Shown here piece by piece: positions 18,400 through 53,185 of a stretch of 64,000 nucleotides of DNA. Position numbers and translations under genes: made by a program. This DNA comes from Cyanidioschyzon merolae (taxonomy: Eukaryota). Where the stretch lies: NCBI GenBank assembly GCA_000091205.1, contig AP006499.2. One strand, written 5' to 3'. Numbering within the stretch: the first letter of the stretch is position 1; each line of letters starts with the position of its first letter. The notes beneath the pieces were generated by a model. The model did not search any database, was not told the origin of the DNA, and was given only the letters and a program-made list of their open reading frames with translations.

Positions 18400-18740
18400 A
18401 GAAGGGAGATAGGTGAGAAAATGTATTCGTCCGAAGTGACGATGACGAGACTTTAGTGTCACAGAAGACGCGAGTTCTAGGAATCCTCCTATCGCTGAGT
18501 TCAACCAACGGCAGGAAACGCATTGAGTTCGTGAACCGAGACTTTAATACCGCCATCAATATCAGACGATGTGTGGCGTTGGAGACGAGTCCCGAAGAAC
18601 CAAGGCAATGCAACTTCATGATGCAGCCTCTGACGCTCGTCGTACGACTGGATACACCGAGGCCGATAGCAGGCGGCCGGGGGAAAAAGACTGCGAAGCG
18701 TTTGCGGAACAGTATGTATACACTTACCGTTCAGGATCTT
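18400..18740 (+). mobile_element. TnpB/Fanzor-like relic, subfamily 1 (last ~35 codons plus conserved 3' non-coding module)
   Basis: The plus-strand ORF reads QKTRVLGILLSLSSTNGRKRIEFVNRDFNTAINIRRC (motif at 18528..18569). Downstream ~170 nt (gatagcaggcggccggggg..aaaaagactgcgaagcgtttgcgg..gtatgtatacacttacc) aligns with the 3' regions of the 21.5k, 36.6k and 46.1k copies. Confidence 0.55.
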
Positions 18741-20513
18741 AGGGCGTTGTCCGTTTTCACTCATCACATATTGCAGAGCGTGGTATTTCAAGCCTGCACA
18801 GCGATCAACATTTCGGCTAAAAATCGAAAGGCAAACATCGCGCGAGCTCCATGGTCCCCCAGTTTCGTCTCGTACGAGTGTAGACACGTCCTCTGGACTT
18901 GATGCAGAAGCAGCCGATATCGATAAGCGACACCTGTACAGCACTTGGAGCCTCACGTGTTCTGGTTGAAGCTGATCGTGCACATGTCCACGCATCTTGC
19001 TAGAGAAGGCATCATCGAATAGATTTTCACCGCATCCATACACCTGCTCAGATGATGCAGGTTCTCCATGAGCGTGCATCTGTGCTGCGCAGACACATCG
19101 CGTCTCGAAAAGAAACACAGGCGCTGCAATCAAGTGCGGATCTGAGGATTGCTGGACAACACGAATCGATGCAGGACCTCGGAGCCATTAGCTCGCAGTT
19201 CAGATTCGGGACCCAGCGACGGCTTGTACCGACATCGATTACCGAAAGATATGTGCATGGCGATAGCTAGACTCGGAAATGCAGGAGGAATCGGTATGTG
19301 ACGTTCTGGAGAACGACCTGAAGCGGAATCGAATCATACCAATGTCTGAAGAGACTCTTGTCGAACGGCGGTCCAGTATGACGTGTCACGGGTATGCAAG
19401 ATCATCACGTGATTGGTTTCTTGTGCAGATCCATTGAAAATATCGCATGGAGATGAAGAGCGAGCGTAAAGAGGCAGCCATGCATCAGTCGAGCGCAGGC
19501 CACGAGCGCTACCCTGGAAGGCCGGGTCGCCGACGCAGCACCACAAGCTGCACTCCACGCCTGGCAGCCATTCTATGCCAGTTGGTGCAACATCGCCAGC
19601 ATCCTGGCTCATGGGCAAAGTCTCGGTTGCATAGTGATGTCCAGGCGAGCCGGATTCGCTGATCGCCTCCAGCTGGCAGTACCAGACGCCGATGCGACGT
19701 GTAGCGCCCTGCATGGAAATGCCCAATCCATAGACATTTTGCGAGTCTCCAAATCGCACCGGGAAACATGTCCGCCGTTTAGGGTTCTGTATTTTTCATG
19801 GGGCGTGCCCAGTGTGTCGAACCTGAGCCCCCTGGACGTGTGATTCCTAACTGCGACCAGTAACGCATTCGCGGTTCGAATAGAGAGCTTTTGGGTTTTC
19901 ACAGAGCCCGGGCATGTGTCACACAGCCGGAAATGTGGTATGCATCCACTTTGCGACGTTCCAGGATCCAGAACATGCCATTGGCGCTTGCTGCGATGCA
20001 TTGCTCTGTAGCGCCACCGCGATCACTGTCCAGGGACAGCGCCGCTTTTCGGTGCTCCAATGGAGGCGTCGGCTCGAGGTAAATTCCTCTGTATTGGAAG
20101 CAAGCAGCGTAGATTCTGTGAAATGCCTCCATCGTGACGCTACGGCCGTTCAAGTGCGCTCCGCTCCTGACGCGAATCCCTATTCGGTATGCATCCGTGG
20201 ATTCCCAGTTGCGAATCGCGTCAGCTGCGGTTCCACTGCATCACACCTCTCAAAAAGTGATCGGGGTTTACGAATGGGCGTTTTTGGCCAGCGATAACAA
20301 GCTGTTGAGATTCATACGAATGCATCCCGTTCTTCAGTCCTGGGGCTCATAGTGAACATTCAGCGAGTGCCCGGTGCCAGGTACGGAAGCCAAGGACGGT
20401 CGAGTCGGCAACCAAACGCGCTGCTTTGAAGGATCCACTCGCCGAATGAATCGTCATCAAATCGCATTCCAGTTTTGATGTCGTTGCCGTCTGAGTCGAC
20501 GCTTTACGACCGA

Positions 20514-21371
20514 TCAAGCGAAGGCATATGCCTGGAAACGAAGTTTCTCAGCGAGGTACCGATTCGCCGCAAGAATACCTCTACCGTCGAGAATGAACTG
20601 CGCTCCGTTTGGCAAGAGACAAACACCACCAGCTTCCTCGACAAGCACTTGACCAGCGGCGAGATCCCAGGTATACGGACCCCATTCCGTGACCACATCG
20701 AAACGTCCACAAGCGACGAAGGCCATATTCAGGGCGGCACTGCCGGTGCTTCGAACCGCTTGGGTGCCGTTCTCGAGGATAGATCGCACCATTTCCAGCA
20801 TCATGGCGACTTTGGAGGCGGAGCGATCACTACCGTATTCGGTAGCAATACATGCATCGGGGAGTTCGCTCACACCGCTACAGAAGATCGGCTTGCCGTT
20901 CAGAAACGCCCCTCGACTGCGGCGGGCAACGAACATCTCCTCCATGATGGGGTTGTACACAACGCCCAGTCGAGCTTGACCTTCGGTGATCAACGCAATA
21001 GAGACAGCACATAGCGGAATATGGTGTACGAAGTTGGCCGTGCCGTCGATCGGGTCGATTGCCCAGGTCGGCGGGTCCAAGTCTTTGACCTGGAGGCTTT
21101 CAGGGCGCCCGTCGAAACCCTCTTCCCCGAGCACTCTGTGGCCCGTACCGTACCGCTCCAGGATGCGCCTTCGGCAGAGCTCCTCGACAGCTCGGTCAGT
21201 TTCTGTTACCGGATCCGTACGTTTCTTAACGTCGTATGCCGTGTGGTACCCGCCCACTGGAGCAGTTCGGAACGGCCAGTCTTTGAAGAAAGCCTGGCGA
21301 ATGAGCTCGCCGCACTCACGAGCCAGTGCTTCTGCGAAAACAAGTGCCTGATCCAGCTCCGACTCGAGCAT
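20514..21371 (-). CDS. inositol monophosphatase family protein (IMPase/FIG superfamily)
   Basis: PVTETDRAVEE, WAIDPIDGTANFVHHIP and VVTEWGPYTWDLAAG are the canonical IMPase metal-binding motifs. The track start 21539 is TTG; the first ATG (MLESELDQALVFAEALAREC) is at 21371, which matches the usual IMPase N-terminus. Confidence 0.85.
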   Translation of the reverse strand: MLESELDQALVFAEALARECGELIRQAFFKDWPFRTAPVGGYHTAYDVKKRTDPVTETDRAVEELCRRRILERYGTGHRVLGEEGFDGRPESLQVKDLDPPTWAIDPIDGTANFVHHIPLCAVSIALITEGQARLGVVYNPIMEEMFVARRSRGAFLNGKPIFCSGVSELPDACIATEYGSDRSASKVAMMLEMVRSILENGTQAVRSTGSAALNMAFVACGRFDVVTEWGPYTWDLAAGQVLVEEAGGVCLLPNGAQFILDGRGILAANRYLAEKLRFQAYAFA

Positions 21372-21603
21372 ACCTCGAGCCTTCAATCCTATGCAGGTAT
21401 ACGCTGCGTTGCCTGCGTAATGTCGTAGTAACCGTGAAGCTTGTCGTGGAAAAGTGCAGCACCGACAGCGAACGCCTTTCAAAAGAAAAACGCTGCCGCC
21501 GGCAGCGTACAGCCGTGGCGAAAAACCCGCCCTCGACAAGACGTCTCCAGCTGACGTGCAGACGCCTCCCAGACTTTTTTGGACCGGCCACCTACTACTG
21601 GTT

Positions 21604-23315
21604 TCAACTTCTTCTCATATAATTCCACCTTGTGAAGTTCCCCATAAAATTCTCTCTCGTCAAGTACGCAAGTCTTCTTTCCATCACCGCCCTTCTCCTG
21701 ATATTGATAGCGGCATTAAAGTCGCGATTCACAAACTCCATCCATTTCTTGTTGCAGCTGGTAGCACTTTCCATTGCAAGTAGTCCTCGAAATTTAACCC
21801 TCCTTTCCATTTGCTCATCTGTCAGCGCTCCGTACTTTTATATATCTTCAGGACTCCGCTGGCACTTTTCCATTTCGACCCTCTGAAGTGTACACCCCAG
21901 TTCATGGTGTGTATGGGACGTTCGAAACTCATCTACAGGTATTGTAACAAAACGCCTTGCGCACTCCTTGTATGTTCTTGCCGTTGGAGCTGGTGTAGTC
22001 CCTTTTTGGGTCTTCCAGCGCCCTGCTCCGTACGCTACTAGGAGCCTCTGACTTTCATCCTCCTTCAAGGCACTCAACTGATTGAAAAAATTCGCGAATG
22101 CACGCTGCTTCCCACAATACAAACTCATTCGCAAACGAGCCCACCGGGGCTTGCTGTACTCCTCCCACAGCGCATCCCAATGGGCGATGCGAACTTCCAT
22201 GAATGTCCGAAAAGCGTTAAAGTCTGCTCGTCGGCTCGTCACCTCGCACAAAGATTCCAGGTGATCCTTCATTCCTGCATTCCATGTCTCGATTTTCTTC
22301 CTCGCATTCATTATACCAGATTCTCGATAGTATCTTGCTCTCGAGAACCTCAAAAGACGCTTGCCTTTCCGACGTAAGTGTCCGTCAGTACCATCTTCCG
22401 CGCGCTTGGGTACTGTGATGTTTATTATATTCGTGTTTGCGGGGTCCGCGCCACCGACAAAATCGTTGTTCTCATGCACTTCTTGCGTCGCAGGATCCGC
22501 CTCTTTGTTTTCTTCAAGCGCCGATAGTGTACGCATATGGATACGCCATTGGTTTCGATTATCCCAGTGAATACCTTTTGCTTGCTTACTTTGAGACGTT
22601 TGAAATCGAAGGTACTCTTCCAGTACGTCTCCCGATTTTCACCGATGAACTCTGTCTTCCTTACATTGAACTCCGGACAGATCTCCTTCATGATGCCGTA
22701 GAGGACTCTGGAGTCGATAGTCACAAAATTCGACTTGATGTGGCACAATGGAACTTCGTTGAAGTGCTTCTCCAGAACCGCAGCCTTCCGTTTCGCCCAC
22801 TTTTCATTTTTTTCCACACTCAGTTTGATCTCCGCTTTGCGTTCGACTTCTCGGTTCAAAAACATGACATAGTGCAGGATGAGGCGATAGCGTCTTTCTT
22901 CATCTTTTTTCATATCTAGTACCTCTTCTGCTCGATTCGCCAGCCCCAGTGCCGCACGATGCTCATGCATAACCGCACGGATCACAGAAGCCTCATTCTT
23001 TCTCCTGCGCGATGTCTTCTTGTTTACAAATTCGGTCTCCTGTTCGTTTTTACTAACGTTCGTGACGCCATCGATGATGGTCCATATCCCTTTGCGAGAC
23101 AGGTCCGGGCGGAGTGCGAACACGGCGCGTATCATGAAACGTTCGAGGTTCATCGTGAAATGATTCTTCATGTTCGTGAGGTACCTCATGGCCCCGTGGG
23201 TGTGCATATCCGCGTCACCCTTGTATCGAGTACCGTTGATGCTACAGAAGATATATTTTTCGTGGAGGGCGTGCACTAGCTCATTTTCACTCCGCATATC
23301 CCATGTGCCAAGCAT
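21604..23315 (-). pseudogene. TnpB/Fanzor-like (OrfB zinc-ribbon, RuvC-III) transposon-encoded nuclease gene, disrupted; plus conserved 3' module 21470..21603
   Basis: Three collinear minus-strand ORFs: 22425..23315 (296 aa, ...[22 protein letters not shown]...); 21838..22536 (232 aa, a different frame with a 112-nt overlap, ...LLVAYGAGRWKTQKG...FVTIPVDEFRTSHTHHELGC...CQRSPEDI*); and after a single in-frame stop, 21604..21810 (...KKWMEFVNRDFNAAINIRRR). VDEFRTS..C resembles the TnpB VDExYTSxxCxxCG zinc ribbon, and NRDFNAAINI resembles the RuvC-III DxNAAxNI motif. A possible N-terminal extension is ORF 23338..23532. Confidence 0.55.
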
Positions 23316-24722
23316 CAGGTGACGAATAAAGGTCTTGTCAAAAAAACTCGTCCGGAACCTCGACTGTTTCTGTTCCCGTCACGTCACGATACATCCCCTT
23401 CACCAAATGCATTAGTCCCAAAGAAGCCTCACGAACACTCGTGGAGTACGAGTCGACACGATTTCTGATGGCCTCTCGGAAATCTTCCTTGTACGGATCC
23501 TTGATATGTTTAAGAAGACAGGCTTTCACCACTATCTCGTCGTTGTGTCGTCTTTTGTGCAGCTTCTGACGTCGGGTCTCCCCGTTTCGCTCCTACGTCT
23601 TCTCCTGTTCCCCTGAGCTCGGCTCTGATTTTCGTTTTTTCCCAGCAGCCGGCGGCACTGGGCCTCCAAGATCCTTTACTTACATCTCCAAAATTTTTTT
23701 GAAAGAGCACGCTCTTTGAACGATTCTGCGATAAAGCGCGAAAAAACACTTGAGTAAACTAAACTGAGGGTTCAAAAACGATTCAATTGAGAAACTATGC
23801 CACGACTTCAACACAAATACATCTTGTACGGTAGAGCAAGAAGACAATGAGTAGAATCGCGTTTCCCTTCAACGGCGAGAAACCAATACTGTCTCATGCC
23901 TGCCAGGATGGAGGTGCACGTATCGACCGCGCTATATAGAACAATGAAGAGAGACTAACCACTAACTGGCAACGATATGAGAAGTTCGTTCCCCCTCTAT
24001 GATAAACGTTACAAGTGGAAGGCTTTCCATGTTGTCGAAGGTTTACGTTCTAGGTGGAAGGTCCCTCGAGCTGGACGAATCTGCCGAGCTTGCGCTCCGT
24101 GCGACTCTGAAATGGCGGCCACTGTAGTGAAATCTGTGCAACTCATCCGCAGCGCAGTTTACTCTAGGACTCGGAGCGAGTAGAATGCATCTGGGCGACG
24201 CCAATGTTGCAGTTCTCTCCTAGCGTGCCGCTTCGCGCTGCCGCAGGCAGTAGGTCTACCGGTCCAGTTTGCAAGCTCCCGGAATAATGATAAACCCTGA
24301 CCCTGTGGCGGGTCGACGACGACTGGAGCGGACGCCGTCAGTGGTATGGCACAGCTCGTCTTTCTTCGTGTTGTAAAAGCACAAGTAGTATAGGCGGTCT
24401 TGCGGGTGGAGCTATGCAGGCACTCGGTGCACGATAGAACAAACGAAACGACCAGTTTCTCCCAGAGAACGTATACATCATGGATCCTAAAGGTAGCACA
24501 TATCGTGAAGGAAGCTTCCCTGAATGCCAGTATCCATGGTCAACGTAAACATTCTTTCAATCCAACAGAAAAGTACATCGGGATACCTGTGTCCGCTGAG
24601 CGAGACGTCGTCCGCCCAGGGCGCTGCCCCCGCGGGAGATCCGTCGAGTGCACCAGATAGGCCGCTCTGGCGTGCGTTCGGTGACCTTAGCTTTTTAAGC
24701 GCAATATTCGTTGAAACTTATA

Positions 24723-26470: not shown

Positions 26471-26603
26471 CAAAACTGATGCTATGTGCTCCACATCGCC
26501 GCTTTGACCTGCGCAAGTTGTACCGTATTCGCAAATAGCGCTCAAAACTGATGCTTTGTGCTCCACATCGCCGCTTTGACCTGCGCAAGTTCTAGCGTAT
26601 TCG
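26471..26603. repeat. 72-bp tandem duplication (2 units)
   Basis: caaaactgatgct(a/t)tgtgctccacatcgccgctttgacctgcgcaagtt(g/c)ta(c/g)cgtattcg is repeated at 26471 and 26543. It lies in the intergenic region 3' of the CBS gene. Confidence 0.85.
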
Positions 26604-27540: not shown

Positions 27541-30500
27541 TTACGCTCCAGGTGGATCCCCGATATGATGTGAGCGTTGTGGCGCCTCTGATGCAACGGA
27601 CATGCCGATCCCTGCTTTCGGGTTCGTTGTCGCTGCCGTTGAGTTCGTTGGGTAAGCACGGTCTCCGCTATCGCCAAATACGTCCGTGGGTTGCTGTGAC
27701 CCCGAACCCGAGACAAGCGGCACTCGTTCTGCGCGCGTCGTTGCAGGCATTGCCAGAACAGTGAGATGCTGGAGCTGTTGGCGCACCAGGGCCATTTCCT
27801 GCCGCAGTGCTTCAATATCGCGACGCAAAGTCCCTTGTTCCTGGCGGAGGGATGAGAGCTCTCCTCGCAAATGTTCCACAGGTTCATTGCCTGGCTTGAT
27901 CGGTCCATTGCCGGATGGTACTGCACCCATGGCTGGATGCGGCAACAAAGCGGGGCTATAACCAGAGGTACCTGCAGGCGGTCCGACACTGATGCCGCTG
28001 GCTGCCGCAGCGCCGCTTTCCATGCCGCTCGCTTGACTGTGCTCAACACGTGGTGAAACGTAGGAATGGAGCGGTCCGGTTCCGGAGCCACTATCATGTA
28101 TACTGGAAACACCGTGCGGAATACCAGGGTACAGAGCGGCACTGGATGCCGGCCCTGCTCCTATGGAGATATCCGCGGCTGAGGCAGCGAACTGCAGGTT
28201 TCCGGCCAGCAGGGCCGAAAGTGTGCGTTGCAGGCCTCGTGCGTGGTGCAGCAATGCCAGCAGGTCCTCCTCGGAGACATTCGCTAGTGGCAGATTTGTG
28301 GTGGCGCGTTGCGCTCGACCTGGAACAGTACCTGCTGCGGAGGCATCTGTGGATGGATCCTTCGGAGACGTCGACGACGATGCAGTGATGCGAGTATGCG
28401 GCTGCCAAGCGTTACAAGTGGCAGTACCCGGAACGCTGCCATATCCCCGTTGATTTGGATGATTGTTGTTCATCGACGGTTGCGTCGCCCAGCGCGACGG
28501 CGGCGGTGGCGGTGACTTGGGTTTCGGTGCACGCGGAGGAGAACGCGTCGCACTCTGTGGCTGCTGGAATACACCGTCCAAAGCAGCTAGCGAAACGTAC
28601 AGAGGATTATGCGGAGAAACATCCCCAGTCGACGCGCTAGATCCTGGTGGTTGCGCTGTCGTTGCGGCTGCTCCACTGGAAAGAGCGGCTCTGGCAGAAG
28701 CAGAAGTTGGCATCGCCTGATGCAGTGGAATATCGATAACCTCAAAACGCCCGTGACTCGAGCGTCGAGACGCCTCGCCCAGTGCAGAGCCACCAGATGG
28801 TACATGTGGGGTCGAGCTTCGGTTCGGATGCGACGTGCTGGCTTCATGGACTGCTGCAGATGATGATGCCGCAGCTGCAGCCGCAGTTACTGCCGCCTCA
28901 GAAGGTCGTGCATTCCCTGACTCAACGGAATGCAACAGTCGCCTCGTTGATTGCCCCTGAGCGTTCCCCGGGTATATGCCATCCCCCAGAGAAGTGATCG
29001 TGGTGGATCCTTCATCGGTCGTCATCGATGTGCCAGTTCGCATGCCCAGTTCAGGTGGCGCGGTATTCCGACTCCCAACAGATTGGTTATAGAACCGGGG
29101 ACGTACGCTGCTGGTGCTGCTGCTATCACTAGCACATGGGTCTGCGGAGACCGCTCCCGGCCTTGGACTCGCGCGTGCTCGCACGTCCTCCGTGAGCATC
29201 TCACGCGTGATAATGTCTTCATGGACAAGGCACGCTGTACTAGGCGAGGTGTGTGGGCGGGACGGCTCCGTATCCACCAGGAGGAAACGCCCAGCTCGTC
29301 GAGACGACCCTGTCTCCACTTTGACAAGATTTTCTGCTGCAGGAGCGGTTTCCTGAGAAAGCGCTGACTCCGTCTCTGCTGATGCGCGCGACGTACGCAC
29401 CGGCGCCGGTTCCACGACCGAGGATCCTAGTGACTGTATATGTTCGTTTTCTGAAACAACAGCGGCAAGATCCGTTACAGGCTGCAGCCTATCTGGGGCT
29501 GGTACTGCGATGCTTTCCGGAATCCGCTGCAGATCACGTTCACGTTTTGCCTCAATTAACTCAGGGCTGTCTGCAAAGTTCCAACCACTGATACCCATCA
29601 CATTTCGGGGATGCTCCGGCGAGCGTCGTCCAGTCTGCGATGCCTGCGATTCCATCGTGCTCGATGAGGCGCTGCTGGCAGGCTGTTGCGACCAGGGCTC
29701 CTGCCCGGGATGCTTCGCCCCAGCGCCCGCTGACGCCACGTGACCCCGTTGCAGGGAGATACGCTCCTTCTCGGAGAGTGGATTCAACTCCAGCGGCGGC
29801 ATTCGGGAGAGCATGTTGGCAGCCCAGCCATTTTCCAATGGAAGCTCCGTCTGCATAAATGGATGTTTCAAGAGCTCACTCGCAGAAGGCCTCTTGTGTG
29901 GATCCTTGTGCAGGCAGAGTTCGACGAAAGCCCGAAACTCGCTGCTAAACCGCTCCGGATGCTCCAGTGTCGGTGGCGGACCCTGTAAGGTTAACTGAAG
30001 CACTTTCATCGGTGCGAAGCGCTCATAGGGCGCACATCCCTGGGCTAATTCGATAGCTGTGATGCCGAACGACCAAATATCTGCCTTGTAGTCGTAACCA
30101 GAGACCTGCTCCATTACTTCCGGCGCCATCCAGCACGGCGTTCCGACAAAAGTCTGCCGCAAGCGACGCGAGATGCCGCTCTCCAGCATGAGCCCCAGAT
30201 ACGTATAGTCTGTGAGCAGGATTCGGGCATCTGGTGTCAGTAAAATGTTATCTGCTTTGATATTGCGGTGGATCTGACGATTCCGGTGAAAGTATTCGAG
30301 GCCCCGCAGCGTACCGTGCAGTATGTACCGAATCACGGCCTCGTCAGGGAAGCCTTCGGGATACAAGTGGCGCAAAATCCGCCCGACAGGAGTCCCTGCG
30401 ACAAAAGGCATCACAATCCAGAGGTTATGCCCCACGGAAAAGGATGTTCGATAGGGCACAACGTTTTCGTGGGAGCTTAAAGACATGACGCGAATCTCCT

Positions 30501-30708
30501 TGATTAGATCATCGAGGGAGAGCGGCAAGCCTTCCAAGTTGATTACTTTGATCGCTACAGCTTCATTGCCGGCCGCAGGACAGATCGCCCGGTACACTGC
30601 TGAGTTTTCCCCGTGACCCAGCTCTTCGAGGAACTCGTACCCGTCAGGCGTCACCGGGTAGCGGCGCGGCGAAGCGGCAGTCACCACATCAACTCCTTTA
30701 TCCGCCAT
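27541..30708 (-). CDS. STE20-family (OSR1/SPAK/STRAD-like) kinase-fold protein with degenerate catalytic motifs and long disordered C-terminal extension with terminal coiled coil
   Basis: The N-terminal kinase domain has LGHGENSAVY, AVAIKVINL, HRNIKADNILL (HRD to HRN), LLTDYTYLG (DFG to DYT), FVGTPCWMAPEVM and DIWSFGITAIELAQG. The C-terminal ~750 aa are S/A/P-rich, ending in ...LRGELSSLRQEQGTLRRDIEALRQEMALVRQQLQHL. The track start 30855 is GTG; the first ATG (MADKGVDVV) is at 30708. Confidence 0.8.
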   Translation of the reverse strand: MADKGVDVVTAASPRRYPVTPDGYEFLEELGHGENSAVYRAICPAAGNEAVAIKVINLEGLPLSLDDLIKEIRVMSLSSHENVVPYRTSFSVGHNLWIVMPFVAGTPVGRILRHLYPEGFPDEAVIRYILHGTLRGLEYFHRNRQIHRNIKADNILLTPDARILLTDYTYLGLMLESGISRRLRQTFVGTPCWMAPEVMEQVSGYDYKADIWSFGITAIELAQGCAPYERFAPMKVLQLTLQGPPPTLEHPERFSSEFRAFVELCLHKDPHKRPSASELLKHPFMQTELPLENGWAANMLSRMPPLELNPLSEKERISLQRGHVASAGAGAKHPGQEPWSQQPASSASSSTMESQASQTGRRSPEHPRNVMGISGWNFADSPELIEAKRERDLQRIPESIAVPAPDRLQPVTDLAAVVSENEHIQSLGSSVVEPAPVRTSRASAETESALSQETAPAAENLVKVETGSSRRAGRFLLVDTEPSRPHTSPSTACLVHEDIITREMLTEDVRARASPRPGAVSADPCASDSSSTSSVRPRFYNQSVGSRNTAPPELGMRTGTSMTTDEGSTTITSLGDGIYPGNAQGQSTRRLLHSVESGNARPSEAAVTAAAAAASSSAAVHEASTSHPNRSSTPHVPSGGSALGEASRRSSHGRFEVIDIPLHQAMPTSASARAALSSGAAATTAQPPGSSASTGDVSPHNPLYVSLAALDGVFQQPQSATRSPPRAPKPKSPPPPPSRWATQPSMNNNHPNQRGYGSVPGTATCNAWQPHTRITASSSTSPKDPSTDASAAGTVPGRAQRATTNLPLANVSEEDLLALLHHARGLQRTLSALLAGNLQFAASAADISIGAGPASSAALYPGIPHGVSSIHDSGSGTGPLHSYVSPRVEHSQASGMESGAAAASGISVGPPAGTSGYSPALLPHPAMGAVPSGNGPIKPGNEPVEHLRGELSSLRQEQGTLRRDIEALRQEMALVRQQLQHLTVLAMPATTRAERVPLVSGSGSQQPTDVFGDSGDRAYPTNSTAATTNPKAGIGMSVASEAPQRSHHIGDPPGA

Positions 30709-31919
30709 GGTTGCACCTCTGAATCTCAACGATACAAACGAAGGGCGTACAAGAACAGGTGTCAGCGCAGCGGTTTGCTCTAGCGCCTCCAAGCAGCAGC
30801 AGCACGTATGCGGTAACCGCTTCAACCAGCCAGCCAGCAACAAACAAACAAACACTCACGTGCGTTTACCGAAAAACGGTTTGGAGAATGGACGCATACG
30901 GTGCGCGCCGAGCGCTCTCTGTGTCAACAGCGGCAGTATACAGAAACACAGGAGAGCGTCAACCGGCGTTCAGCTTCAATGAACGATATCGCAGTACAGT
31001 GCCAGTGATGTGTCCGATAACATGGTGCTGGCTTGTGCATAGGGTCTCCACTTGACGTCTCCGCTCCTAAGCAGGTCTCGCGCAAAACGCACCGCCTAAC
31101 GTCGTCGAATGCTCTACATGGAGCGTCTGTGGAACAGCGATTCGTGGTGAGCGAAGAAGTGTCCATAGAAATCTGCATTTTGTCTGATAACGGTGCATGC
31201 AGTCTGGTCGTATGTGTGTTGATATAGGCTCCAATGCGTGCCTGAGGTCGTACGGGTAAATACGCGCTGGAAGCTGCGGACGGAATCCAGGTAGCGCTAT
31301 GACAATCGAAGGATCCGCTAGCGAGTGGTCGACGCTGACGGCTCGACGTAGTCGAATCACTGTGCAAGGGCACGGGGCGAGCCCAGGTCGAACTCGCTGA
31401 GACCCAACCAGCTGCGGATGAAAGAGGTGCTCCAAGGAACGCAGCATCAAGGTCAGCGATATGGCAGAAGCGGGAACGCACGCACACACAGTGTGGAACG
31501 AGTGCAGTGCACGATGGATCTGGTATTGCTGTCATCGCTTTTGGTACATGAGTATCACCTGTCGACCGAATGAAGTCCGTAGCGACAGCAAGTGGCGCCT
31601 GGGCGCGGGGAAGGTTGGGCGTTTTCCCGGAAGCGTCGCGAGTCCGCACGAAAGACCCGCTGGTCGACAGTGCACCGACGATAACTGCGTCGACTCGTCA
31701 TGCATGACATGAAGAGAACGACAGCCTCGGTGGTGTCCGTACAACTAGACTACTGCAGAGCGGTGATTTTTGCGGCACGCTAGTCGTACTCGTACGAGAA
31801 TAAAATGGTATGGGCCCAAGCCGAGCGTACACGTTCAAGTATCGGTCTCTTCCGAAGGTCATCAGCAGAAGCCGTTGCGAGCTTTTTCCTGTGACCGCTT
31901 CCTTGCGCTCTGTTCAAAT

Positions 31920-32130
31920 CGCCGGCTATCAATAGGTCTGGAGCTCCAGTCCCTCTGGATCCCTTACCAGCTGTCGAAGCATGTTGATGGAAGCGTTCAA
32001 GTCCCGATTTCGCTACTTCCGGCTGCTGTCAGAGCATGTCATGCATCGGCAAACGCTGCGACCTATGCTTCGCTTGCCATTTCCATGTTGTTTCTGTTCG
32101 ACTTCGATGTACGCGTCAAAGCGGTGACAT
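31920..32130 (-). mobile_element. TnpB/Fanzor-like relic, subfamily 2 (second copy)
   Basis: The minus strand reads RCHRFDAYIEVEQKQHGNGKRSIGRSVCRCMTCSDSSRK*RNRDLNASINMLRQ. The stop sits at the same codon position as in the 17.1k copy, and the nucleotides are homologous to 17040..17290. Confidence 0.5.
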
Positions 32131-35877: not shown

Positions 35878-36469
35878 TGCCCTGGCCTGTACTAAGATGC
35901 CGGATCCGCACCCAGACTGGTCAAGTACAACAGCATCAACGACCTAGTGATGACGCGAAGAGATGTCCGACGATAGAGCTGGCTGTGCCTGCTGCCTGGA
36001 CCCGCCAACATGAGGCAATACGCAGTCATCTCGAACAATGAAATACCATCGTGATTCACCAATTGCTCACAAAATGCATTCCCGATGTATCTATACAGCG
36101 CTTTCTTCTTACTGGACTGCTGAACCGTACGAGAGCAGTGCCTTGGTGCAGACGGAGATCCAATGACCACTCTCGTGGCCATTGATTTTTTTCATCGGAA
36201 TTTGTCAGCATGTGAGTACAGTGCCTCGACTGCGTTCTCAGCGATTCCCACGAACATTCGCGTAAAACGAAGCTGCTGGAGGCCCCGGAGAGCATGAATC
36301 ATTTCCGGATATTGATCGAGGCGCTCAAGTATCGGTGCAGAAGGTGCTTCGGCGCATTGTTGATAGCAAAGTCACACCATAGCGAGCCTCGCTTCCTCCA
36401 TTGCCTCTCCGTTTGGCGCTTGATTCGCTCTGCCCGACGCCATCTCGAGCATTCGTCTCTGTTTCACGC

Positions 36470-36900
36470 CTTGCTTATGCATCTGTTGGATATGCGATCC
36501 GTAAAACAGAAAATGCGCCACGACCATGGCGGGTACGTTTCCATATACCCACGCGCAGACGCGTCCCAGCATTTTTGACTGGCTGCCTGCTATCGGTATC
36601 GGATTATCCAGGTAAACGTGGTGCTTGAGACGCTGCCCCACAAAGTTAGCTCGCGTTAGCTCCTTGGGTATCTCGTCAGTTGCACCGGAAATCGTCTGAT
36701 ACTGATATCGACGTTGAACTCTCGATTCACGAACTCCTTGCGTCCGTTGTCGCTGGTGGAACGCACCAGTGCAACGATCCCCGGAACGCGAGCCCTCTGG
36801 GTCACAACAGTCTCGTCGTCATCCCGTCGCGGAAACCCCGCGTCTCGTCTATCTTTCCTCTTTCTTTTGTCGTATGTTCTTCTGTGCTCGATGATTGACA
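36470..36900 (-). mobile_element. TnpB/Fanzor-like relic, subfamily 1
   Basis: The minus ORF 36656..36946 reads ...VVTQRARVPGIVALVRSTSDNGRKEFVNREFNVDISIRRF (motif 36692..36736), aligning residue-for-residue with the 18.5k and 46.2k copies. The downstream ~230 nt (gatagcaggcagccagtcaaaaatgctgggacgcgtctgcgcgtgggtatatggaaacgtacccgccatggtcgtgg) is conserved at the nucleotide level with 46.1k, 21.5k and 18.6k. Confidence 0.55.
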
Positions 36901-39900
36901 AACAGCGGATTTTTCCGGTTTTCCGGCATCTGGCGATCACGGGCATCTAGGATCCCCGACTTTTACGTCCATACCGTCCGCTTGGATTGTTTATTTCTTC
37001 AAAATGAACGCACTTTGAACGCGTCTGCTATAAACCACGAGAAAGCATTTGATTACAGGAACCCAGGAATAAAACACATTTGAGGCGAAAGACGACTAGG
37101 TGCACCGGTGCTTGTGATGCGTGTATGTTGTCCTTGACGTATGAAAGCGAATCATAGCACATCGTCTCCTGCACTCGTTGTGCGCTATCTTGGGCACAGC
37201 AGGAGTGCATTCTCGTGCGCGACAGCTCGTCCAGCGCCATCGTCAAGCACCAAATGATGCAGGTTATCAGTCAACAACGCTTCTGACTCATTGCACAAGT
37301 CGGTGAATGCACATTTCTTGCCTCCGTCCAATCGAGACGGGTCGGCAACCCCAGCGCGGTTACAGGCGTCTTTGACAAAAATCGTTCCCGTGATCCACTT
37401 GAACAGTCACGTTTTATCTAAATGAAGCGTACAGAGTCTCGCTGGCGGCTCGATACGGTTCTCAGAGTGTCGAGACTCGGCTGCTCACGCCGTGATTCCT
37501 CTTCCTGGCATGTCGCCTAGCATTCAGGATTCCCGACTGCAGATGATGTCGAGCCCCGGAGACGATGAGCAGCAGCATCTGCTTTTCGTTTTTGGCATCG
37601 GGTCCGTCCGTCCTTTAAATTTAGCAGTACGGAGACGCCCTTGGAGGTCTTCAATCCAGGATCCAAGTCCGTTGCCAAGTCTTTCTCTTCATCTACGTCG
37701 AGCGGATGAACATAAGAATCGTTGCCCGAATGGGACCTCGGTTTTCACCAAATGCATGCAGAGCGATGTGTGGTCGACCTCCATTGCCCCAGTACACTCG
37801 TTTTCATTTCCTCCCTGTGAACGTGAAACCTTGAACGAACTCCGTCACAATGTTCCTCATGAAGTTCTTCGAATGCTGCATGCCTGCTCGCGGAGACCAG
37901 ACGTAACGGACTGAGGTCGGCATGCAACGCAGTCCAGTCCAGAAGTATCTACGGGCACATGTACAGGAACACGGAGTTGGATACGGTTCCCCGATCGAAC
38001 GGAAACCTTGAGGAGGATTGAGTGCTCGGATCCGGGATGGCAGTCTGGTTTGCTGTCGAGGGCTCTGTTCAGGAAAATCCAGAAGCGAAAGATGCAACGA
38101 AGGTAGCGATGACGTACCCAGCGCCTTCTGGATACGACATCCCGCCGTCCGCAACCGTGTGCAGCACGACCAGCGTGAACGATCTGAAGCGAACCTCGTT
38201 CTCGTAGCGACACCTCTCCTGAACTCGCTACCACCCTTAGCGCTTCCGTCACCAGTTCGTCATTTGCATATAGCGAAAGACCAAGAATCCCTTACATCAG
38301 TCCCTGCTCCTCTGGGTCAGCTAGGTGATGGTATCAAGCCCATAGGTTGCATTTCACGAAGCGCTCGAGATGGACCCGTTGATGGATTTTCAGGTTCGTT
38401 AGATGCACTTTGTCACCTGTCCTCTGGACGTTCCGCTAGAAAACATGACAAGCCTGCGAGTCAACCTTTCATCCGAAACGCATTAGCAACTGTTTGATTC
38501 TGAGATCGAACCGTTTCGCATCTAATATCCTGGGGAATCGTTGTGTTGTTCCACGACAGCTAGATCAAACTTCCAAGCGAATGTGGTGAGCTTCCAGACC
38601 GGCTTCGCGACCTTGTACGAAGTTTGGCTTGACCAGGCGCGTCTAGACAAGGGAAGCAAGGCGGACCTTTCTCGAGTGAGAAGCTACTCGACCTCAAAAA
38701 GGGCTCTGCAATGCTCCATTCGAAAGATTCTCAACGCCGTATTGGTATGTTTGAATTTGGAGGCAATAAAATTGTTATCACAGTGAGCTTCTTGGTCCTA
38801 TGGTTTTCCGGTCTTGTGCCTTTTCGCCCTCTCTTCGGAATAATCTTTCTCTTCTATGGCTGGTGATGTCTTCTCTGTCTCTATTACTTGGCGGGATTGT
38901 AAAGCCCCTATGCTCTACATCCGTTCTTTCCCTCGTGACTCACATATGCGCTGGGTCCACGATAGGACTGAGACTCGTCTTTTCTAATTCCATTTCCAAA
39001 AGTTCTCAAGTACCTCCTCATCACCTTCTCCGTCGCAAGCAAGCCCGCGGACTGAAGGGCACCGTCCCGCTCGCTCCTGTACACGAGCACAGAAGCAGCA
39101 GAGCAGCCAGGGCCGGTGAAGATGCTCGAGAACGCATTGTCGAAGTGAGGTGTCACGGATCCGAACAACTCGTCTAATGATCCATGAATTGAAACATAGC
39201 GCTCGAAAAAACATAAAAGACGCTTTCGAACGGGTTGAAGCGGGGAGGCTAGGCTGGCATGAAGCGTTGGTCAAAGCCAGTCTCCACCGGATGCTTCTTG
39301 ACCGCTTTTGATTCATGGACATCGATGTTGTCTAACAGCAGCACCGAAGCATGCGGGATGGAGAATCCACAAAGCGTACGTCGACGAAGGATGCGGTTTC
39401 GAGCATTCCCTTCCGTTTGGCGATTCGTAGGTAACGAAACGATAGCATCGCAGCTATCGCTGGTGCTGTCGCCGTGCCCGGTTGTCGCTTCTTAACGAAA
39501 AGCGGATTACCCCGCTTTGTGAACCCATAAACAGGTCAGCAGCTTCCCGTGAATGAGTCTTGTTGAGTGAGACAAGCATACGTCCCTCCTGTACAACGCG
39601 GTCGTGTTTCAGTACGAAATCGATATGGTGTTGGTCAATGCGTAATGGTCTCCCAAAGGAGCGTGCTTTTTGCTTCGTCAATCTGTGTCATTTATCACTG
39701 TACGGATCAACGATTCGCAAACTCTACATCCTGTAGCTTATCAGATAGTAATTCTCAGAGTATGCATATGGTTTGGAATGCATGGACGAGGCGAAAATCG
39801 TGTGGATAGAGCTTGATAAGTGCTGCTTTGGGTCCACGACTTTCTACGAGAAGCGTGTTTCATCCATCCGTTGATCGTAGAATGGCTTTCTTGCACACCA

Positions 39901-45477: not shown

Positions 45478-46019
45478 CGGCGCCTTGAGCAGTCACAACA
45501 AGCTGTCGCACGCCCGACCCCAGCTCCGACAACGCCTCCGTCTGTCTTTGAACGTGTGCGGCGGACCGGCCAGGACTCGCTAGCCCGCAGCACGTTACAG
45601 AGCCGTGTAAAGGCAGAGCACAACACGCAACGCCCTACTCTAGCCTAGAGTATGAAGTGCAGACGAAACACCGCCACCTTTTCAACCTTGCGCCGCTTTC
45701 TTGCAAGGTTTACCTGCATGCAGGGACACGTCAGTGCCGCCAGCGACAAGGATGCGTGCGCGCGTCGTGACGATGCGTGCGCTGTCACGCCTAATCCCGC
45801 GCCGGGGCCGCTGGCCGCCTTCGAGGCCTCCGGCGCAAATCGAATCGCGCTGAGCGGCTGACGCAGCGCAGCGCTGCGCAGCGCAGGGGTGGGCTTGTGC
45901 GGTGCGCGACTGCGCAAATGCGCTCGTGGAGTGGGGGGTTGTGGAGCTGCGGCCCCGCCGCACTTCGCTGCGTTGCGCGTATCGAGCCGACGTCCCCGTG
46001 CCGTCCCCGCCATGCTCTG

Positions 46020-46330
46020 GTCAGGAAAACGAACACTGTTCCACGGCCATGGAAGGTATCTATACACCCACGCACGGATGCCTGCCAGCCGTTTTGTTTC
46101 GACCGGCCGCCTGCGATCAGTTTTGTTTTATCAGGGGACAGTGCGAGCCTGAGAGACAGCCCAAGAAAGTCGGTTCTCATCAACAGCGCCTATCGTCGGA
46201 TATTGATAGTGGCATTGAAGTCCCGATTCACAAAGTCCATTCGTGCGGTTCCGCTGGTGGAACGCACGAGTACCAGGATTGCGAGAACTCTTGTCCTCAG
46301 TGCCGTTTAGTGCTCTGCTCGCTCTTCGTA
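46020..46330 (-). mobile_element. TnpB/Fanzor-like relic, subfamily 1
   Basis: The minus strand reads *TALRTRVLAILVLVRSTSGTARMDFVNRDFNATINIRR* (motif ~46198..46240; an upstream in-frame stop limits the coding part to ~45 aa). The downstream sequence (gatcgcaggcggccggtcgaaacaaaacggctggcaggcatccgtgcgtgggtgtatagataccttccatggccgtgg) is homologous to the 36.5k copy. It lies ~550 bp upstream of the MAPK start. Confidence 0.55.
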
Positions 46331-47648
46331 CTTTTTTATCGCCGAAGCGTTCGGCCGGCTTTGCTCCATCTCGACGTTCTCAAATGTTCAATACAGCGCA
46401 ACCTCTGCACTTCCTATTTTTGAAACTGAAAGCACTCTTTCTTATGCCATTGTTTGAAGACCTTGCCGGAGAGAGAGGCACGAGCGCAAGAAAGACGACA
46501 TATGTCCGAGTGTGTCGCCATGTGCTGAACGCTTCACCAATTCGCCCAGTGCAGCGATTATAACGTTTCACGATAGAAACCACGTCTTCGATTGGCATGA
46601 ACCAGGAAGCGTATGGAGGAATGATACGCGGCTCTACCCCTGATAGAATCGGAAACAGCTCGAATGCAAGGGGAATGTTATAACGCCACCTTATCTAGTA
46701 GAAGGACGTCGTCGGACGTCAGGGAGAGGTCTTCAGTGATTCGATAAAGTGATTTGTGCTGCAGTATGAGCCTTCTCTACGAGCGAGACTTAGGCTGGCA
46801 AATGAATCCACTGCAGATAGAACAGATGATGATGTCGTCGTTCCCTTTGAGCTCGATCTTGCATGCAACCGGTGTCCTGCTCCTCGAATACCCATACACG
46901 CTCCGTCTGTCTCGTTTGAAGCAAGTCACATCGACTGGAAAAAAACAAACCGATGTTCCTCTTCTTCATGTCGATCGCTGCGTTCCAGGAAAGCTGTGGC
47001 AGTTTCGATTTCGATGGAAGATGGCCGTGCGTGAACTAGGACTTTTTTGCGACTGTATATTCGTGTTTCCATGATTACACGAACGAGCTCTTGAGAAACA
47101 GAGACGCCCGCAGTAAATAGAATCGACGCTTTTGTTTTCCGTAAGGTGTTCAACGGGTCGTTTCTACACCATTGACCGCAAGAAGTCTTTCAGAGTATCG
47201 GCATTTGATGCGGAGCGCGTGTACTCTTTTCTATGAACATTCCTCAGTCATCAGGGTACTGTGCAACGACTGACCTGAAGGAGGAATGCCATCCTCCATG
47301 CACTGCTCAGTCAAGTATATATATCCTAAAGGCAATTCGTCTACGATCTATGCTGTACATTGCATCGATCTTTCGATCTCTCGCGCTGTACTGCGAAAAA
47401 AGCATTCGATCACATGCGGCGATGACGGAATAAAATAGAACTGAACGACCAGAAAAGGCACTTTTCACGCGACTCCGAACTAGCAGGTAAAGCGTGCCGG
47501 TACGCCTGCGCAGCCGATTGGCGCTCGAATTCCTTGCCGCTGCGCAGCACTGCGTCTGAGTAGGTCGTTGTGCTGCAAGGCTGCGGCCTTTCTCGAGGGT
47601 GTGCTGCAGAAACCGCCTTGACGGTGGCTAGGGGCGACAGGACCGTGT

Positions 47649-48596: not shown

Positions 48597-51113
48597 AGAC
48601 GTGACCGCACGGTATACCTGCACTTTCAGAACTGGGCATGTGCATGCGTCTTGACGACCCAGGGCGAGAAACTGCAACAACGACGCCAGATACAGCAGGC
48701 AGCAGCGGCTCGAGCGAGTGCGTCTCGCGATACCATTTGCGAAGCGACCGGCATGCTGGAACGACCACAAAGACGCGCGGGACGCAGCGTGATCGTACCT
48801 GTATCTATCGCTAGTGGTTGCAGCACTACGTAGCGAGATCCGATGCACTCATCGAGAACACGTCATCGTGGAGAGAAATGCGCACAGAGACTATCGCTGC
48901 ATCATTTTCGGGTGCAGCATTGCGACGCACCGAGGAAAACCGATCACGCGAGCATACCGTGAAGCGGGATAGATGTTTCCGCGAAGAAAAGTTTTTTCCA
49001 CAGTCTAAAATAGGGCCTTTTTGCATCATTCCTGGACGTTCAAATGGAAACACCAAGCATTGATTGCCCTTGACGTATTCGCCGGGCCAGATGGTTCCTG
49101 TTCCAGCTGCTCTGAGCATGAAGAATGCGGAACGTGCACGCTGCATTCCACGAGTTGCTGCGCCGCAGTAGCACGCGTTTGCGCGGTCCCGATTACAGTC
49201 CGCAAAGGTTCAGGTTTTTGGTTTCAAGCTGGCGACAGTTCGTATGTGCAGGAGGGATTGGGGATCCATCTAGACTGCCAATAGAAAAGCGCGAGTCGAA
49301 AGCAGCGTTCATGTACGGCGCTCAACTCTGCAGATCCGCTTTGCAAGGAAGCGATCGGACGGTTGCACGCGACGTCGCATGCGTTTCGATACACCCGCCT
49401 AACGCGTTACCGGGCAAGAGACACCACGGAAACCCGGCTAATATACACGATGTGTCGATAAAGACACATGCTTCATGCAGCCTGCTGGTCTGCTGGACTG
49501 CAACGCCGCCACCCGTGAAGTGTATTGAACGCGCGGAAGCGTCGAGGCAGCTGCATTGGAGCGGAGATCGAGACCCTGGGAACCGGCTCTGGAAGCGGAA
49601 ATTCCGGTTTACCCGTGTCAGAATAAAAAATAGAACGAGTCGCGTTCGCCAGCCGAGGCATACGTTCTAAAGTCTGGGACTCTTCGCATGAACGCCAGCG
49701 CCAGCCTCCACGGGATTTTTTTGCGTATGTTTTGTTTGCTTGTCTCGGAACTATAACTCTGTTTTCAGCTGCCAGGCGATGTGCACGGCGACGTAAATGT
49801 TCCTATTTCGTCGCTTTCGGGGGTTGTCGACGCATTTCATGCTCAGGTAAAAGTTGTAATCTCCGCTTTGCCAGCCATTTTCCTTCTCTTTAGATACAGG
49901 ATCGGTGTGCCCTGCGCAGCTGTGGCACTTGACTAACGGCACGTGCTCCGATACATTCAATGCATCTTCTCGCGAGAGCGCCGAACTCTGCCGCGTGAAC
50001 GCTTGCTTCTTCGCTCGGCACATGCCCTTGACAAGGACAGAACTTTCACCCTGATGCTGTTCTCCGCTTCTGCGCCCAGGATCGTACCATGCGATCAGGG
50101 GCTCCTTCAGGGAGCTCGCCCCGGAGAGCACGCCGGCTGCTCCTTATGCGAGCGCATGCAGTTCCATTCGAAAGAGAGTTTCTGAAAGGCGAGGCTCTCC
50201 GTGATGAAGCAAGTATTGTAAGGAAAAATCAGGCTGGAGATCGTCTCTAGAAATTCCGATCCGTCTGTGATCCCTCTTTGCGGAAAGCGTTGACGAAGTC
50301 TCCATCGGAAGCGATCGCCTCTGTGGCTCAAGTCCGAATCCAAGACTCTTTTCCATGAAAGAAGACACGGGAACTTCTGGGACCATACCTTGTGAATTGT
50401 ATCATGGTACAGTGGAGTCCCGTTTCACCAGTTACCATGACGAGAGGAGGATTTATCTCTCGAACGCAGTCTGTGATTCAGCGAGACAAGTTCAGTGAAT
50501 GTTCGGCATGAGATTGTGAACAATGCCCCCAAAGAGTGAAGTCGAGCAGTTTCCTCGTCAATCGAGCGGGCGAATGATTATGGTCACGAGATGTCCTGGA
50601 GCATGAAGATCGATAAGATAAGGCAAGCTTGATTTGTGTATTTTACATATAAGGGAAGGAGAAGGATGGATGCTTTTTCATATGCATTGGATAATACTGT
50701 CGGTTGTTTTACCAGTGCTTGTTCGAGCGCGTTACGAATCATCCCGATTCCGGTGACGCAACGAATGCCAGTGGCAGACAATATTGCAGGTGCCACTTCG
50801 AAACGACGACCGAGGATCCGAAAACTACCTATGGATCCGTAAGCGCATTGTGCTGCGCTTCGAACGCCTACCAAGCGCATCAAAAAAATTCGTACGGAAA
50901 TCGAAAACCAGGAAACGATTGCCCAGTTCACTTTACCACTTGAAGCTGACACCAACGTAGATGCATAGATCCAAAACTCTACGTCAACTCGCCGACGCCC
51001 CTAGAGCGATTGTGATCATCATCAGGTCGAGTGGTGCGCGATGTGCGCTCGCTTTTGCTAGAATGGCACCAGATGCATTCGGGGTGTACGGAACGCGAAC
51101 AAGACTGCTTTAT

Positions 51114-52766: not shown

Positions 52767-53100
52767 CACCCGATAGCGACGTGTTGCTCGCGTTGTACGC
52801 AGGTTACGCGTCACTCGTTGAACGCGAGTCTGTGGCAGCGCAACGAGTTCGGGGTCGAGGCGACCGCTAGCGTCTATGGAGTGCGTTCCTCGCGGCAGGT
52901 AGCTGTGGTATGAACAATGGTGACGGATACAGCTCCGAGCGTTGCCACTTCACCTGGCGTGTATACCAGCTTTATTTTTAGAACCTCATGGAAACGCGCC
53001 CAGTCATAGGCGTATGCAAGGCGTGCATGAGCGCCCGGACGGCAAACACTAGCGCGCAACGCTTTATATACCAAATTTCGTGCTAATTGTTGCGAGTCGC

Positions 53101-53185
53101 GGTAGTATAGCTCAGTCGGTTAGAGCGTGCGGCTGTTAAGACAGTAGAAACCGCAAGGTCGAGAGTTCAAGCCTCTCTACTACCG
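53101..53185 (+). tRNA. tRNA-Asn (anticodon GTT) with 11-nt intron after the anticodon loop
   Basis: Manual fold: acceptor GGTAGTA/TACTACC (7 bp), U8, D-arm GCTC-AGTCGGTTA-GAGC, anticodon stem TGCGG/CCGCA with loop CTGTTAA (identical to the canonical Asn loop), ~11 extra nt (gacagtagaaa) between loop and 3' stem, variable AGGTC, T-arm GAGAG-TTCAAGC-CTCTC, discriminator G. A T6 run at 53191 serves as the Pol III terminator. Confidence 0.8.

Follow-up and report, generated by a model that had tools for sequence, protein, structure and literature searches.

In a 64,000-nt stretch of Cyanidioschyzon merolae DNA (contig AP006499.2 of assembly GCA_000091205.1), referred to here as the window, four loci share a block of about 230 nt that a first-pass annotation, made from the letters alone, had read as a conserved non-coding module, either a candidate guide RNA (omegaRNA) scaffold or a transposon right end. 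We found that each of the four loci is a dead copy of an element from CMe-1, a Fanzor1 transposon family represented here by two subfamilies, and that the module consists of the last ~50-54 Fanzor1 codons followed by 63-78 nt of non-coding DNA reaching to the transposon right end. The loci are labelled copy A (18158-18778, plus strand), copy B, the focal locus (36481-37098, minus), copy C (21454-24559, minus) and copy D (46015-46387, minus), with copy E for an older pseudogene around B; A, B and D make up subfamily 1, and C is of the CMe-1A type. All the copies in the window are too decayed to function. The explanation that we favor as a whole, and that we consider moderately probable, is that the module is the 3' end of CMe-1, mostly coding, with a right end that is possibly an omegaRNA scaffold. 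From its sequence the omegaRNA reading is plausible, and the more specific proposal, that in active copies the tail of the open reading frame (ORF) and the right end together encode the scaffold, has in our judgement roughly even chances.

That the four loci are related, as the annotation proposed, was borne out: self-blastn matched A (18152-18771) with B (37103-36490) at 67% identity over 627 nt (E=8e-40) and the pairs A/C, C/D and B/D at 77-82% identity over 60-88 nt, and a four-locus MAFFT alignment had a mean column identity of 67%. The claim that some 230 nt directly 3' of the stop are non-coding did not hold. In six-frame translation, copy A keeps its frame through the whole module without a stop, reading ..FVNRDFNTAINIRRCVALETSPEEPRQCNFMMQPLTLVVRLDTPRPIAGGRGKKTAKRLRNS.. 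(ORF 18456-18902), B and C yield the same peptide given one frameshift each, and in D alone does a stop (TAG, 46192-46190) come straight after INIRR. For comparison, 80 metagenome loci encoding relatives were retrieved (given L numbers below). Intact metagenome homologues extend 54 codons beyond ..AINIRR (..CAVLEKRPPELTRENFVGQPLKVELYEKKLEAVVGGRSKKTGRRLHVSWRRFV*), and those with full query coverage all end ..AINIRRCAVLE(K/T)RPPELTRENFVGQPLKVELYEKKLEAVVGGRSKK(T/A)GRRLHVSWRxx*. When the family consensus was compared by tblastn, the tail of A matched at 47% identity over 91 aa in a single frame (E=2e-18). The nucleotide block by which the module had been defined, 'gatagcaggcggccggtc.aaaa..gctgg...gcgtctgc.cgtgggt', is itself a run of codons for P-I-A-G-G-R-S-K-K-x-G-R-R-L-R-V-G. 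The coding share of the module is about 150-165 nt, or roughly two thirds, and the truly non-coding stretch after the real stop measures ~63 nt in B (36543-36481), about as much in A and D, and 78 nt in C (21531-21454). The lack of coding-frame consistency that had been taken as a sign of non-coding sequence is due to frameshifts in the pseudogenes, and the central argument, that 230 nt are conserved at the nucleotide level without a reading frame, was wrong because most of the module is C-terminal coding sequence. It is a tempting misreading, and worth correcting: frame-inconsistent conservation among pseudogenes is no proof that a sequence is non-coding, and here it masked a 54-codon C-terminal extension of the nuclease.

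The four copies also do not carry one and the same non-coding module, as had been supposed, for the non-coding ends differ between C and the A/B/D group. A nhmmer profile of A, B and D aligns C-type copies across the coding part only, and a covariance model of the C-type end finds copy C alone in the window, even with the filters off. Since the ends of the two subfamilies are unlike each other, the sequence common to all four loci is the coding one. The reading as a transposon right end proved correct, given a sharp boundary in dozens of copies and the retention of this end in the mobilized deletion derivatives described below. Among 55 distinct aligned 3' ends, column conservation is 0.84-0.90 across the ORF tail, ~0.77 for ~80 nt past the stop and then ~0.3, and the sharp boundary is common to 42-75 CMe-1A-type copies. 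The covariance model recovers 75 copies of the C-type end, located on dozens of contigs with unrelated flanks; copy C scores 83.8 bits.

Copy C (21454..24559, minus) is a complete ~3.1-kb CMe-1A-type Fanzor1 element, although now a pseudogene. Its ATG at 23685 is followed by a TAA, several further stops and frameshifts interrupt the ORF, and the ancestral stop TAG now reads GAG (21534-21532). Nevertheless, tblastn with the consensus protein covers residues 5-764, the first 700 nt match the 5' region of the consensus, and identity to metagenome proteins is 69-80%. The coding tail (21532..21693, minus), labelled non-coding in the first-pass annotation, comprises 54 codons past INIRR and is frameshifted. 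Beyond it the non-coding right end (21454..21531, minus), delimited by the conservation boundary, contains a small GC stem, GGGCGGG-TTT-TTCGCC (21531-21516), next to a long hairpin at the terminus that is imperfectly paired (21512-21454), and is a candidate omegaRNA scaffold in which the two would be the counterparts of stem-loops 1 and 2 (SL1 and SL2) of known omegaRNAs. The guide of this candidate, if there is one, would begin at ~21453. Only ~80 nt (21373-21454, minus) separate the right end of C from the ATG of an inositol-monophosphatase-like ORF that follows on the same strand (20514-21373), and read-through transcripts of the element would therefore enter that gene. Another feature of the CMe-1A type is a TAG at the same codon in 13 of 56 copies (PPE[W/L]TR to PPE*TR; the codon at ~21660 in copy C), where the remaining copies have TTG, CTG or TGG. 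The carriers include the metagenome loci L001, L003, L004, L009, L011 and L012, and in 11 of the 13 exactly 43 open codons follow up to the normal stop; the shared TAG may mark a subfamily from an already truncated master copy, or else a recurrent mutation. A weak match to the right-end covariance model at 30319-30386 (minus; 18.5 bits, E~0.006), within a 1104-aa ORF (27541-30855), is probably due to chance.

The focal copy B, ~618 bp long, derives from a subfamily-1 Fanzor1 element by internal deletion, with the left end TAGTCGTC.. and the right end ..CAACAGAT. It aligns along its full length, and no further, with copy A, a ~621-bp copy of the same derivative. In both, the 5' end of the element and ~57 codons are joined to the final ~95 codons and the 3' end: the extra upstream segment (18158-18458 in A, 37098-36803 in B) is homologous to the 5' untranslated region (UTR) and first ~57 codons of the full-length CMe-1A consensus, and the N-terminal remnant is joined in frame to ..TQRARVPGIVALVRSTS.., in the last ~95 codons. 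The N-terminal remnant of B (36803..36972) runs from an ATG at 36972 (MDVKVGDPRCP*SP..) to ..DDETVV at the junction 36803/36802; in translation, the consensus MKKQVDDPGGPVSP...RLYDEMVV corresponds to MDVKVGDPRCP*SP...DDDETVV in B. A RuvC-III remnant follows (36692..36733), with the motif FVNREFNVDISIRR and E in place of the catalytic D. The coding tail of B (36544..36691), the bulk of the previously described module, is frameshifted (..PKELTRANFVGQRLKHHVYLDNPIPIAGSQSKMLGRVCA / GTRLRVG) and matches intact homologues at the protein level. Since a TAA stands directly after GRRLRLG in L049 and GRRLHIG in L080, and the TAG of D two codons later, the ancestral stop of B can be placed at 36546-36544. 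The remaining ~63 nt (36481..36543) are a non-coding right end of the subfamily-1 type, with a GGGTA..TACCC hairpin across the stop (36550-36531) and a small CCATGG..CGTGG stem (36529-36518). The corresponding landmarks of A are an ATG remnant at 18272, the junction at 18458/18459, the ancestral stop at ~18714-18716 and the non-coding end at ~18717-18778, with RuvC-III and the tail legible in one frame within its ORF. Subfamily 1 comprises seven copies, namely A, B and D plus four among the metagenome loci (L042, L049, L080 and L025), and similarity among them fades past ..GTTTT..CAGA(G/T), at ~36481 in B, ~18778 in A and ~46015 in D.

The junction, at which DDETVV meets TQRARV, is identical in five copies: A, B and the three metagenome loci L042, L049 and L080. 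Outside the ~620-bp unit A and B share no sequence, so that a segmental duplication, for which aligned flanks had been named as the telltale sign, is excluded, and B is nested within the older pseudogene E. The same junction in several copies, the unrelated flanks and the nesting of B together establish A and B as internal-deletion derivatives that retain both ends and were mobilized as units. The persistence of the 3' end in them argues that the ends of the element are needed in cis. Copy D (46015..46387, minus) is instead what a 5' truncation has left of a full-length subfamily-1 element free of the deletion, namely residue ~646 to the end. Its upstream part reads ..TFENVEMEQSRPNASAIKKYEE.., without the deletion junction, its TAG after INIRR is a nonsense codon, its natural stop is the TAG at 46062-46060, and its non-coding end spans 46059-~46015. 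The statement that the copies had lost more than 90% of the ORF is right for A and B; D is a truncated fragment, and C the complete pseudogene. Copy E is interrupted by B. Its 5' part (37099..38435, minus), found by tblastn and hmmsearch, covers residues ~160-646 and ends ..TYTHHKHRCT, and its 3' part (36250..36470, minus, ends approximate) resumes after B with ..RMLEMASGR.., comparable to QRVEMEKCQR, and has ASINIRK at ~36330-36310; the evidence for this part is hmmsearch, a match of the RuvC-III region of A at 36339-36308, and manual translation.

Two other interpretations of these sequences were discarded. The ~285-nt A/B segment (18152-18430 and 37103-36830) is not an intron or a zinc-finger insertion, since its counterpart in the full-length element is the 5' UTR with the first ~57 codons, and VVFRLKC in B is not the RuvC-II motif VDEFRTS, since this stretch is the left end of the mini-element, common to A and the CMe-1A 5' UTR. 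The 5' flanks of the four usable mini-elements (A, B, L042 and L049) have no clear motif in common that resembles a target-adjacent motif (TAM), the left end of CMe-1A is blurred by an extra 5' part, and around A and B a possible (T/A)GCA(C/T) occurs on both sides at inconsistent distances. In L049 (4420-5110), a minus-strand mini-element lies tail to tail with the right end of a plus-strand CMe-1A copy, their 3' ends ~10-20 nt apart; together with the location of B inside E, this hints that the elements insert into or beside one another.

The assignment of the CMe-1 proteins to the Fanzor1 family comes from profile comparisons. A protein search with the reconstructed copy C gave 251 homologues, and a HMMER scan of 1.84 billion representatives gave 1459 relatives, many of 600-700 aa. 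Single proteins and a narrow 15-sequence profile had no matches in Pfam, NCBIfam or a PDB sequence search, and a broader profile was therefore needed. Built from 44 diverse homologues, it matched the Fanzor1 structures of Parasitella parasitica PpFz1 (9cf0, E=5e-20), Spizellomyces punctatus SpuFz1 (8gkh, E=1e-13) and Guillardia theta GtFz1 (9cer, E=2e-7), and eight of the 44 members matched the Cas12f1-like TNB domain. An AlphaFold2 model from a shallow alignment had a predicted local distance difference test (pLDDT) score of 31.6 and was of no use for fold inference. The RuvC triad D..E..D is present in the family consensus and in copy C as VGADPGNTN ... VDEFRTS ... NRDFNAAINI (pattern tested: D-X(125-275)-[TS][TS]-..-RD), and between RuvC-II and RuvC-III, where a C4 zinc finger is expected of a Fanzor1, the consensus reads THHELGCTLQRVEMEKCQ (H-H..C..C) rather than CxxC..CxxC. 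As focal copy B keeps RuvC-III alone, reading NREFN, it is not a nuclease. In the profile alignments SpuFz1 and PpFz1 end just past the RPxxF(S/T)R segment, from which it follows that the CMe-1 proteins have an additional, lineage-specific basic C-terminal extension of ~35 residues downstream of RuvC-III. Just upstream of RuvC-I, the Fanzor1 proteins (the metagenome homologues P0001, P0002, P0005, P0012 and others) contain a variable number of acidic repeats of ~19 aa, of which copy C has a single unit (~22480-22560); this region is the cause of a frameshift in the nucleotide consensus.

Several observations hint at a function of the right end as RNA. A conserved non-coding stretch begins at the stop, breaks off sharply 63-78 nt further on and occupies the position of an omegaRNA. 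Nearly all C-type copies individually adopt the same fold, in which a GC stem right past the stop (GGGCGGG-TTT-CTCGCC) precedes a long, imperfectly paired hairpin running to the element boundary. We determined minimum free energies (MFE; means in kcal/mol) for 42 copies, with z-scores against dinucleotide shuffles. The 80 nt past the stop had a sense MFE of -29.0 (z -1.8) and an antisense MFE of -22.9; the values were -21.5 (z -0.57) and -15.2 for the last 64 nt of the ORF plus stop, -12.7 to -15.6 (z ~0) and -11.8 to -15.6 for the ORF body, and -19.5 (z ~0) and -19.9 for the flank. The fold of the C-type end is more stable than that of shuffled sequence, on the sense strand, and the right end of copy C itself reaches -39.8 kcal/mol (z=-4.9). 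Appositions in the stem are G-U in 189 cells and A-C in 53 (the cells are not independent), an excess expected if pairing matters on the sense strand. In an alignment of 75 copies fitted to the covariance model, all five covariation measures exceeded the shuffles (0-9 of 500): 82 cells had changed on both sides, compared to 51.8±7.4 in shuffles (0/500), and 74 further pair types were seen, compared to 63.6 (1/500), several pairs running A-U / G-U / G-C. We take this as modest, alignment-dependent covariation support for the C-type hairpin. In subfamily 1, a hairpin straddles the stop in six of the seven copies with different arms (GGGTA/TACCC, GGCTG/CAGCC, AGGTT/AACCT).

A second line of evidence comes from the coding tail. 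In a set of 51 copies, codon periodicity is clear in the ORF body, with a ratio of third-position to first- and second-position diversity of 1.4-3.0, and this ratio drops to 1.28 and 1.13 in the last two 27-codon windows, where first and second positions are more variable, and third positions less variable, than in the body. Diversity at 4-fold sites is 0.215 in the last 53 codons, compared to 0.306 in the ORF body (Mann-Whitney p=0.019). Such a pattern would be expected from weak protein constraint combined with nucleic-acid constraint, and may, with modest confidence, fit an omegaRNA overlapping the end of the ORF as in TnpB and GtFz1. Taken as a whole, the tail is no better conserved at the nucleotide level (0.86-0.88) than the remainder of the C-terminal ORF half (0.86-0.93), and neither a pseudoknot nor a conserved structure was detected within the tail (z=-0.57).

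Considering these findings, it can be hypothesized that active copies would produce a sense transcript from the ORF tail to the right end that acts as the omegaRNA scaffold, with a small stem beside the stop codon followed by the long terminal hairpin, and that the transcript would continue 15-20 nt into the flank to supply the guide, as in SpuFz1 and GtFz1. A stem beside the stop, a second stem and the flank are the SL1/SL2/guide layout of Fz1 omegaRNAs (Xu et al., PMC11423790; PMC10432273). Such a role would account both for the retention of the 3' end by the deletion derivatives and for the lower synonymous variation of the ORF tail.

A number of results weigh against this hypothesis. RNAalifold returned almost no consensus structure from either 56 sequences of 310 nt or 42 of 98 nt; on MAFFT alignments, 67-71% of the cells in two hairpin variants pair, no more than in column shuffles, and two small stems likewise paired no better than column shuffles. 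The positive covariation is inflated by the structure-fitted alignment and by sequence kinship. The module of the focal copy B folds no better than shuffles (z=-0.78), and subfamily 1, with only seven copies, is too small for statistics. Rfam, searched over the whole window and the focal region at a relaxed E-value, gave no match save one tRNA. No TAM or target site duplication (TSD) could be defined from the element flanks. Most copies of the family, including all those in the window, are pseudogenes, whose conservation could be simple common descent, and the terminal hairpin could equally be a transposition signal at the DNA level. The omegaRNA proposal of the first-pass annotation therefore survives as regards position, the two-stem layout and a C-type fold that beats shuffles, and fails as regards covariation on unbiased alignments and the folding of B; the RNAalifold and covariation analysis that it had suggested as a check gave no consensus structure and, on the structure-fitted alignment only, modest covariation.

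A stronger version of the hypothesis, which we consider less likely than not, is that the last ~54 codons of CMe-1 Fanzor1 would be dual-coding, constrained mainly as the 5' part of the omegaRNA, and that the ~620-bp mini-elements would be omegaRNA-carrying 'ghost' elements, kept or spread in trans by the few intact Fanzor1 genes. Somewhat less likely still is that nothing beyond common descent is needed, such that the module would be the decaying C-terminal coding sequence and 3' UTR of dead Fanzor1 copies, never functional as RNA, with hairpins that are incidental palindromes. The coding nature of the tail, its conservation within the range of the C-terminal half of the ORF, the absence of covariation on unbiased alignments and the shuffle-like folding of B are all in keeping with this view. 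However, it does not account for a right end that is more stable than shuffles on the sense strand only, for the lowered synonymous diversity of the tail, for the excess over shuffles on the structure-fitted alignment or for the retention of the 3' end by a mobilized deletion derivative, and an omegaRNA is found at this position in every experimentally tested Fanzor (PMC10432273, PMC10530073).

Ranking just below common descent, and likewise improbable, is the explanation that the terminal hairpin acts in cis as a right-end signal at the DNA level for an unknown trans-acting transposase, comparable to the subterminal hairpins of IS200/IS605 or to Helitron ends, in place of a guide scaffold or in addition to it; the DNA-level signal and the omegaRNA are compatible with each other. 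The hairpin lies exactly at the element boundary, CMe-1A lacks terminal inverted repeats (TIRs) and is unclassified (PMC3627910), and the mini-elements keep both ends, as is expected for cis-acting transposition signals. Nevertheless, many of the pairs are G-U, which would become A-C mismatches on the opposite strand and are weak in DNA, the element has no transposase gene linked to it, its left end showed no hairpin to match, and the right end is without the CTRR terminus of a Helitron. Helitron 3' ends have a short GC-rich hairpin 10-12 nt before the CTRR terminus. The CMe-1 hairpin extends over 50-60 nt up to the boundary itself, with ends reading ..GGTGATGG or ..GGTGCTGCAC rather than CTRR, which speaks against a Helitron 3' end. 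Finally, that the repeat is a host-gene UTR or segmental duplication placed beside Fanzor remnants by chance is next to impossible: nothing was found in its favor, A and B share nothing beyond the ~620-bp unit and the same 3' end recurs in 75 copies among unrelated flanks on dozens of contigs.

CMe-1A is the one Fanzor1 family described in C. merolae (Bao & Jurka 2013, PMC3627910), with ~150 copies, ~80% identical to the consensus and ~3 kb long, without TIRs and with undetermined TSDs; its 5' 635 bp are another repeat, TE-N2_CMe. Copy C fits this description in every respect, including the single Fanzor1 ORF and the distinct 5' part of ~635 bp, the likeness being drawn from the published description. 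The right-end hairpins, the omegaRNA, the A/B/D subfamily and the ~620-bp derivative are absent from that paper, and TE-N2_CMe covers the 5' 635 bp only. Another close system is SpuFz1 of the Spu-1 element (Saito et al. 2023, PMC10432273; Xu et al. 2024, PMC11423790), which belongs to a homologous protein family and likewise has a short conserved non-coding stretch of ~75-85 nt between stop and right end, with two stems followed by a variable flank. Moreover, the 'ghost' loci of Spu-1 in S. punctatus (PMC10432273) are short non-autonomous copies that keep their ends and lack the nuclease ORF, as the mini-elements do, except that the latter retain ~150 codons of ORF remnants. Spu-1 differs in having 30-nt inverted repeats and a CA/TA target, neither of which was found in CMe-1 elements, and the CMe-1 ORF has the extra ~35-aa extension past the SpuFz1 and PpFz1 ends. 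In TnpB of IS200/IS605 and in GtFz1, the omegaRNA overlaps the 3' end of the nuclease ORF (PMC10432273). The candidate CMe-1 scaffold would do the same, and synonymous variation is reduced there as dual coding predicts, although in CMe-1 the overlap is deduced from modest statistics (p~0.02), and CMe-1 differs from IS200/IS605 in being without TnpA and without a defined TAM.

The chromosomal setting of these elements was identified from exact protein matches for four ATG-started ORFs of the window, a MAP kinase (BAM82104), a chorismate mutase (BAM82105), a plastid sigma factor (BAM82107) and BAM82108, which fall in the range BAM82104-82108 of C. merolae 10D proteins, on a 1.23-Mb chromosome; the chromosomal genes are present in Joint Genome Institute (JGI) metagenome assemblies as well. 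Other repeats in the window include a dispersed repeat of ~158 nt in four copies with 61-70% identity (7158-7315, 17082-17239, 31973-32130 and 49771-49928, plus). These D1 repeats have no relation to the CMe-1A 5' region and possibly represent a further old repeat family. A ~1.07-kb direct repeat (56439-57510 and 59756-60821, plus), 95.6% identical (99% over 300-nt stretches) and spaced 3.3 kb apart, lies near an aspartyl beta-hydroxylase-like gene (57861-58853). A tandem array at 9858-10126 (plus), of three to four 69-nt units that are 92-96% identical, overlaps ORFs on both strands (9623-10093, minus; 9771-10304, plus), and two 61-nt units of 95% identity with 72 nt spacing occupy 26471-26603 (plus). 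The single tRNA gene of the window (53100-53187, plus) is called 'tRNA-Stop (tta)' by ARAGORN; judging from the Rfam alignment, in which a 12-nt insertion comes after the anticodon loop CU-GUU-A, the gene is most likely a tRNA-Asn(GUU) with a short intron, and the suppressor call an artefact.

The Fanzor1 family and the principle of an omegaRNA at the 3' end have already been published. In the searchable literature no paper on a C. merolae Fanzor RNA was found, and neither the precise position of the right end nor its hairpins, the second subfamily or the ~620-bp derivative is described there for C. merolae. Our analysis locates the right end of CMe-1 and yields an omegaRNA candidate of ~80-190 nt, together with a family of mobilized deletion derivatives, in a red alga amenable to genetics. 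Should RNA data confirm the candidate, CMe-1 would be one more Fanzor1 system with an ORF-overlapping omegaRNA, an incremental addition rather than a new principle. Homologous recombination in C. merolae is very efficient. If the dual-coding tail and the 'ghost' mini-elements proved to be true, C. merolae would thus be a natural test system for Fanzor-driven transposon homing in a eukaryote.

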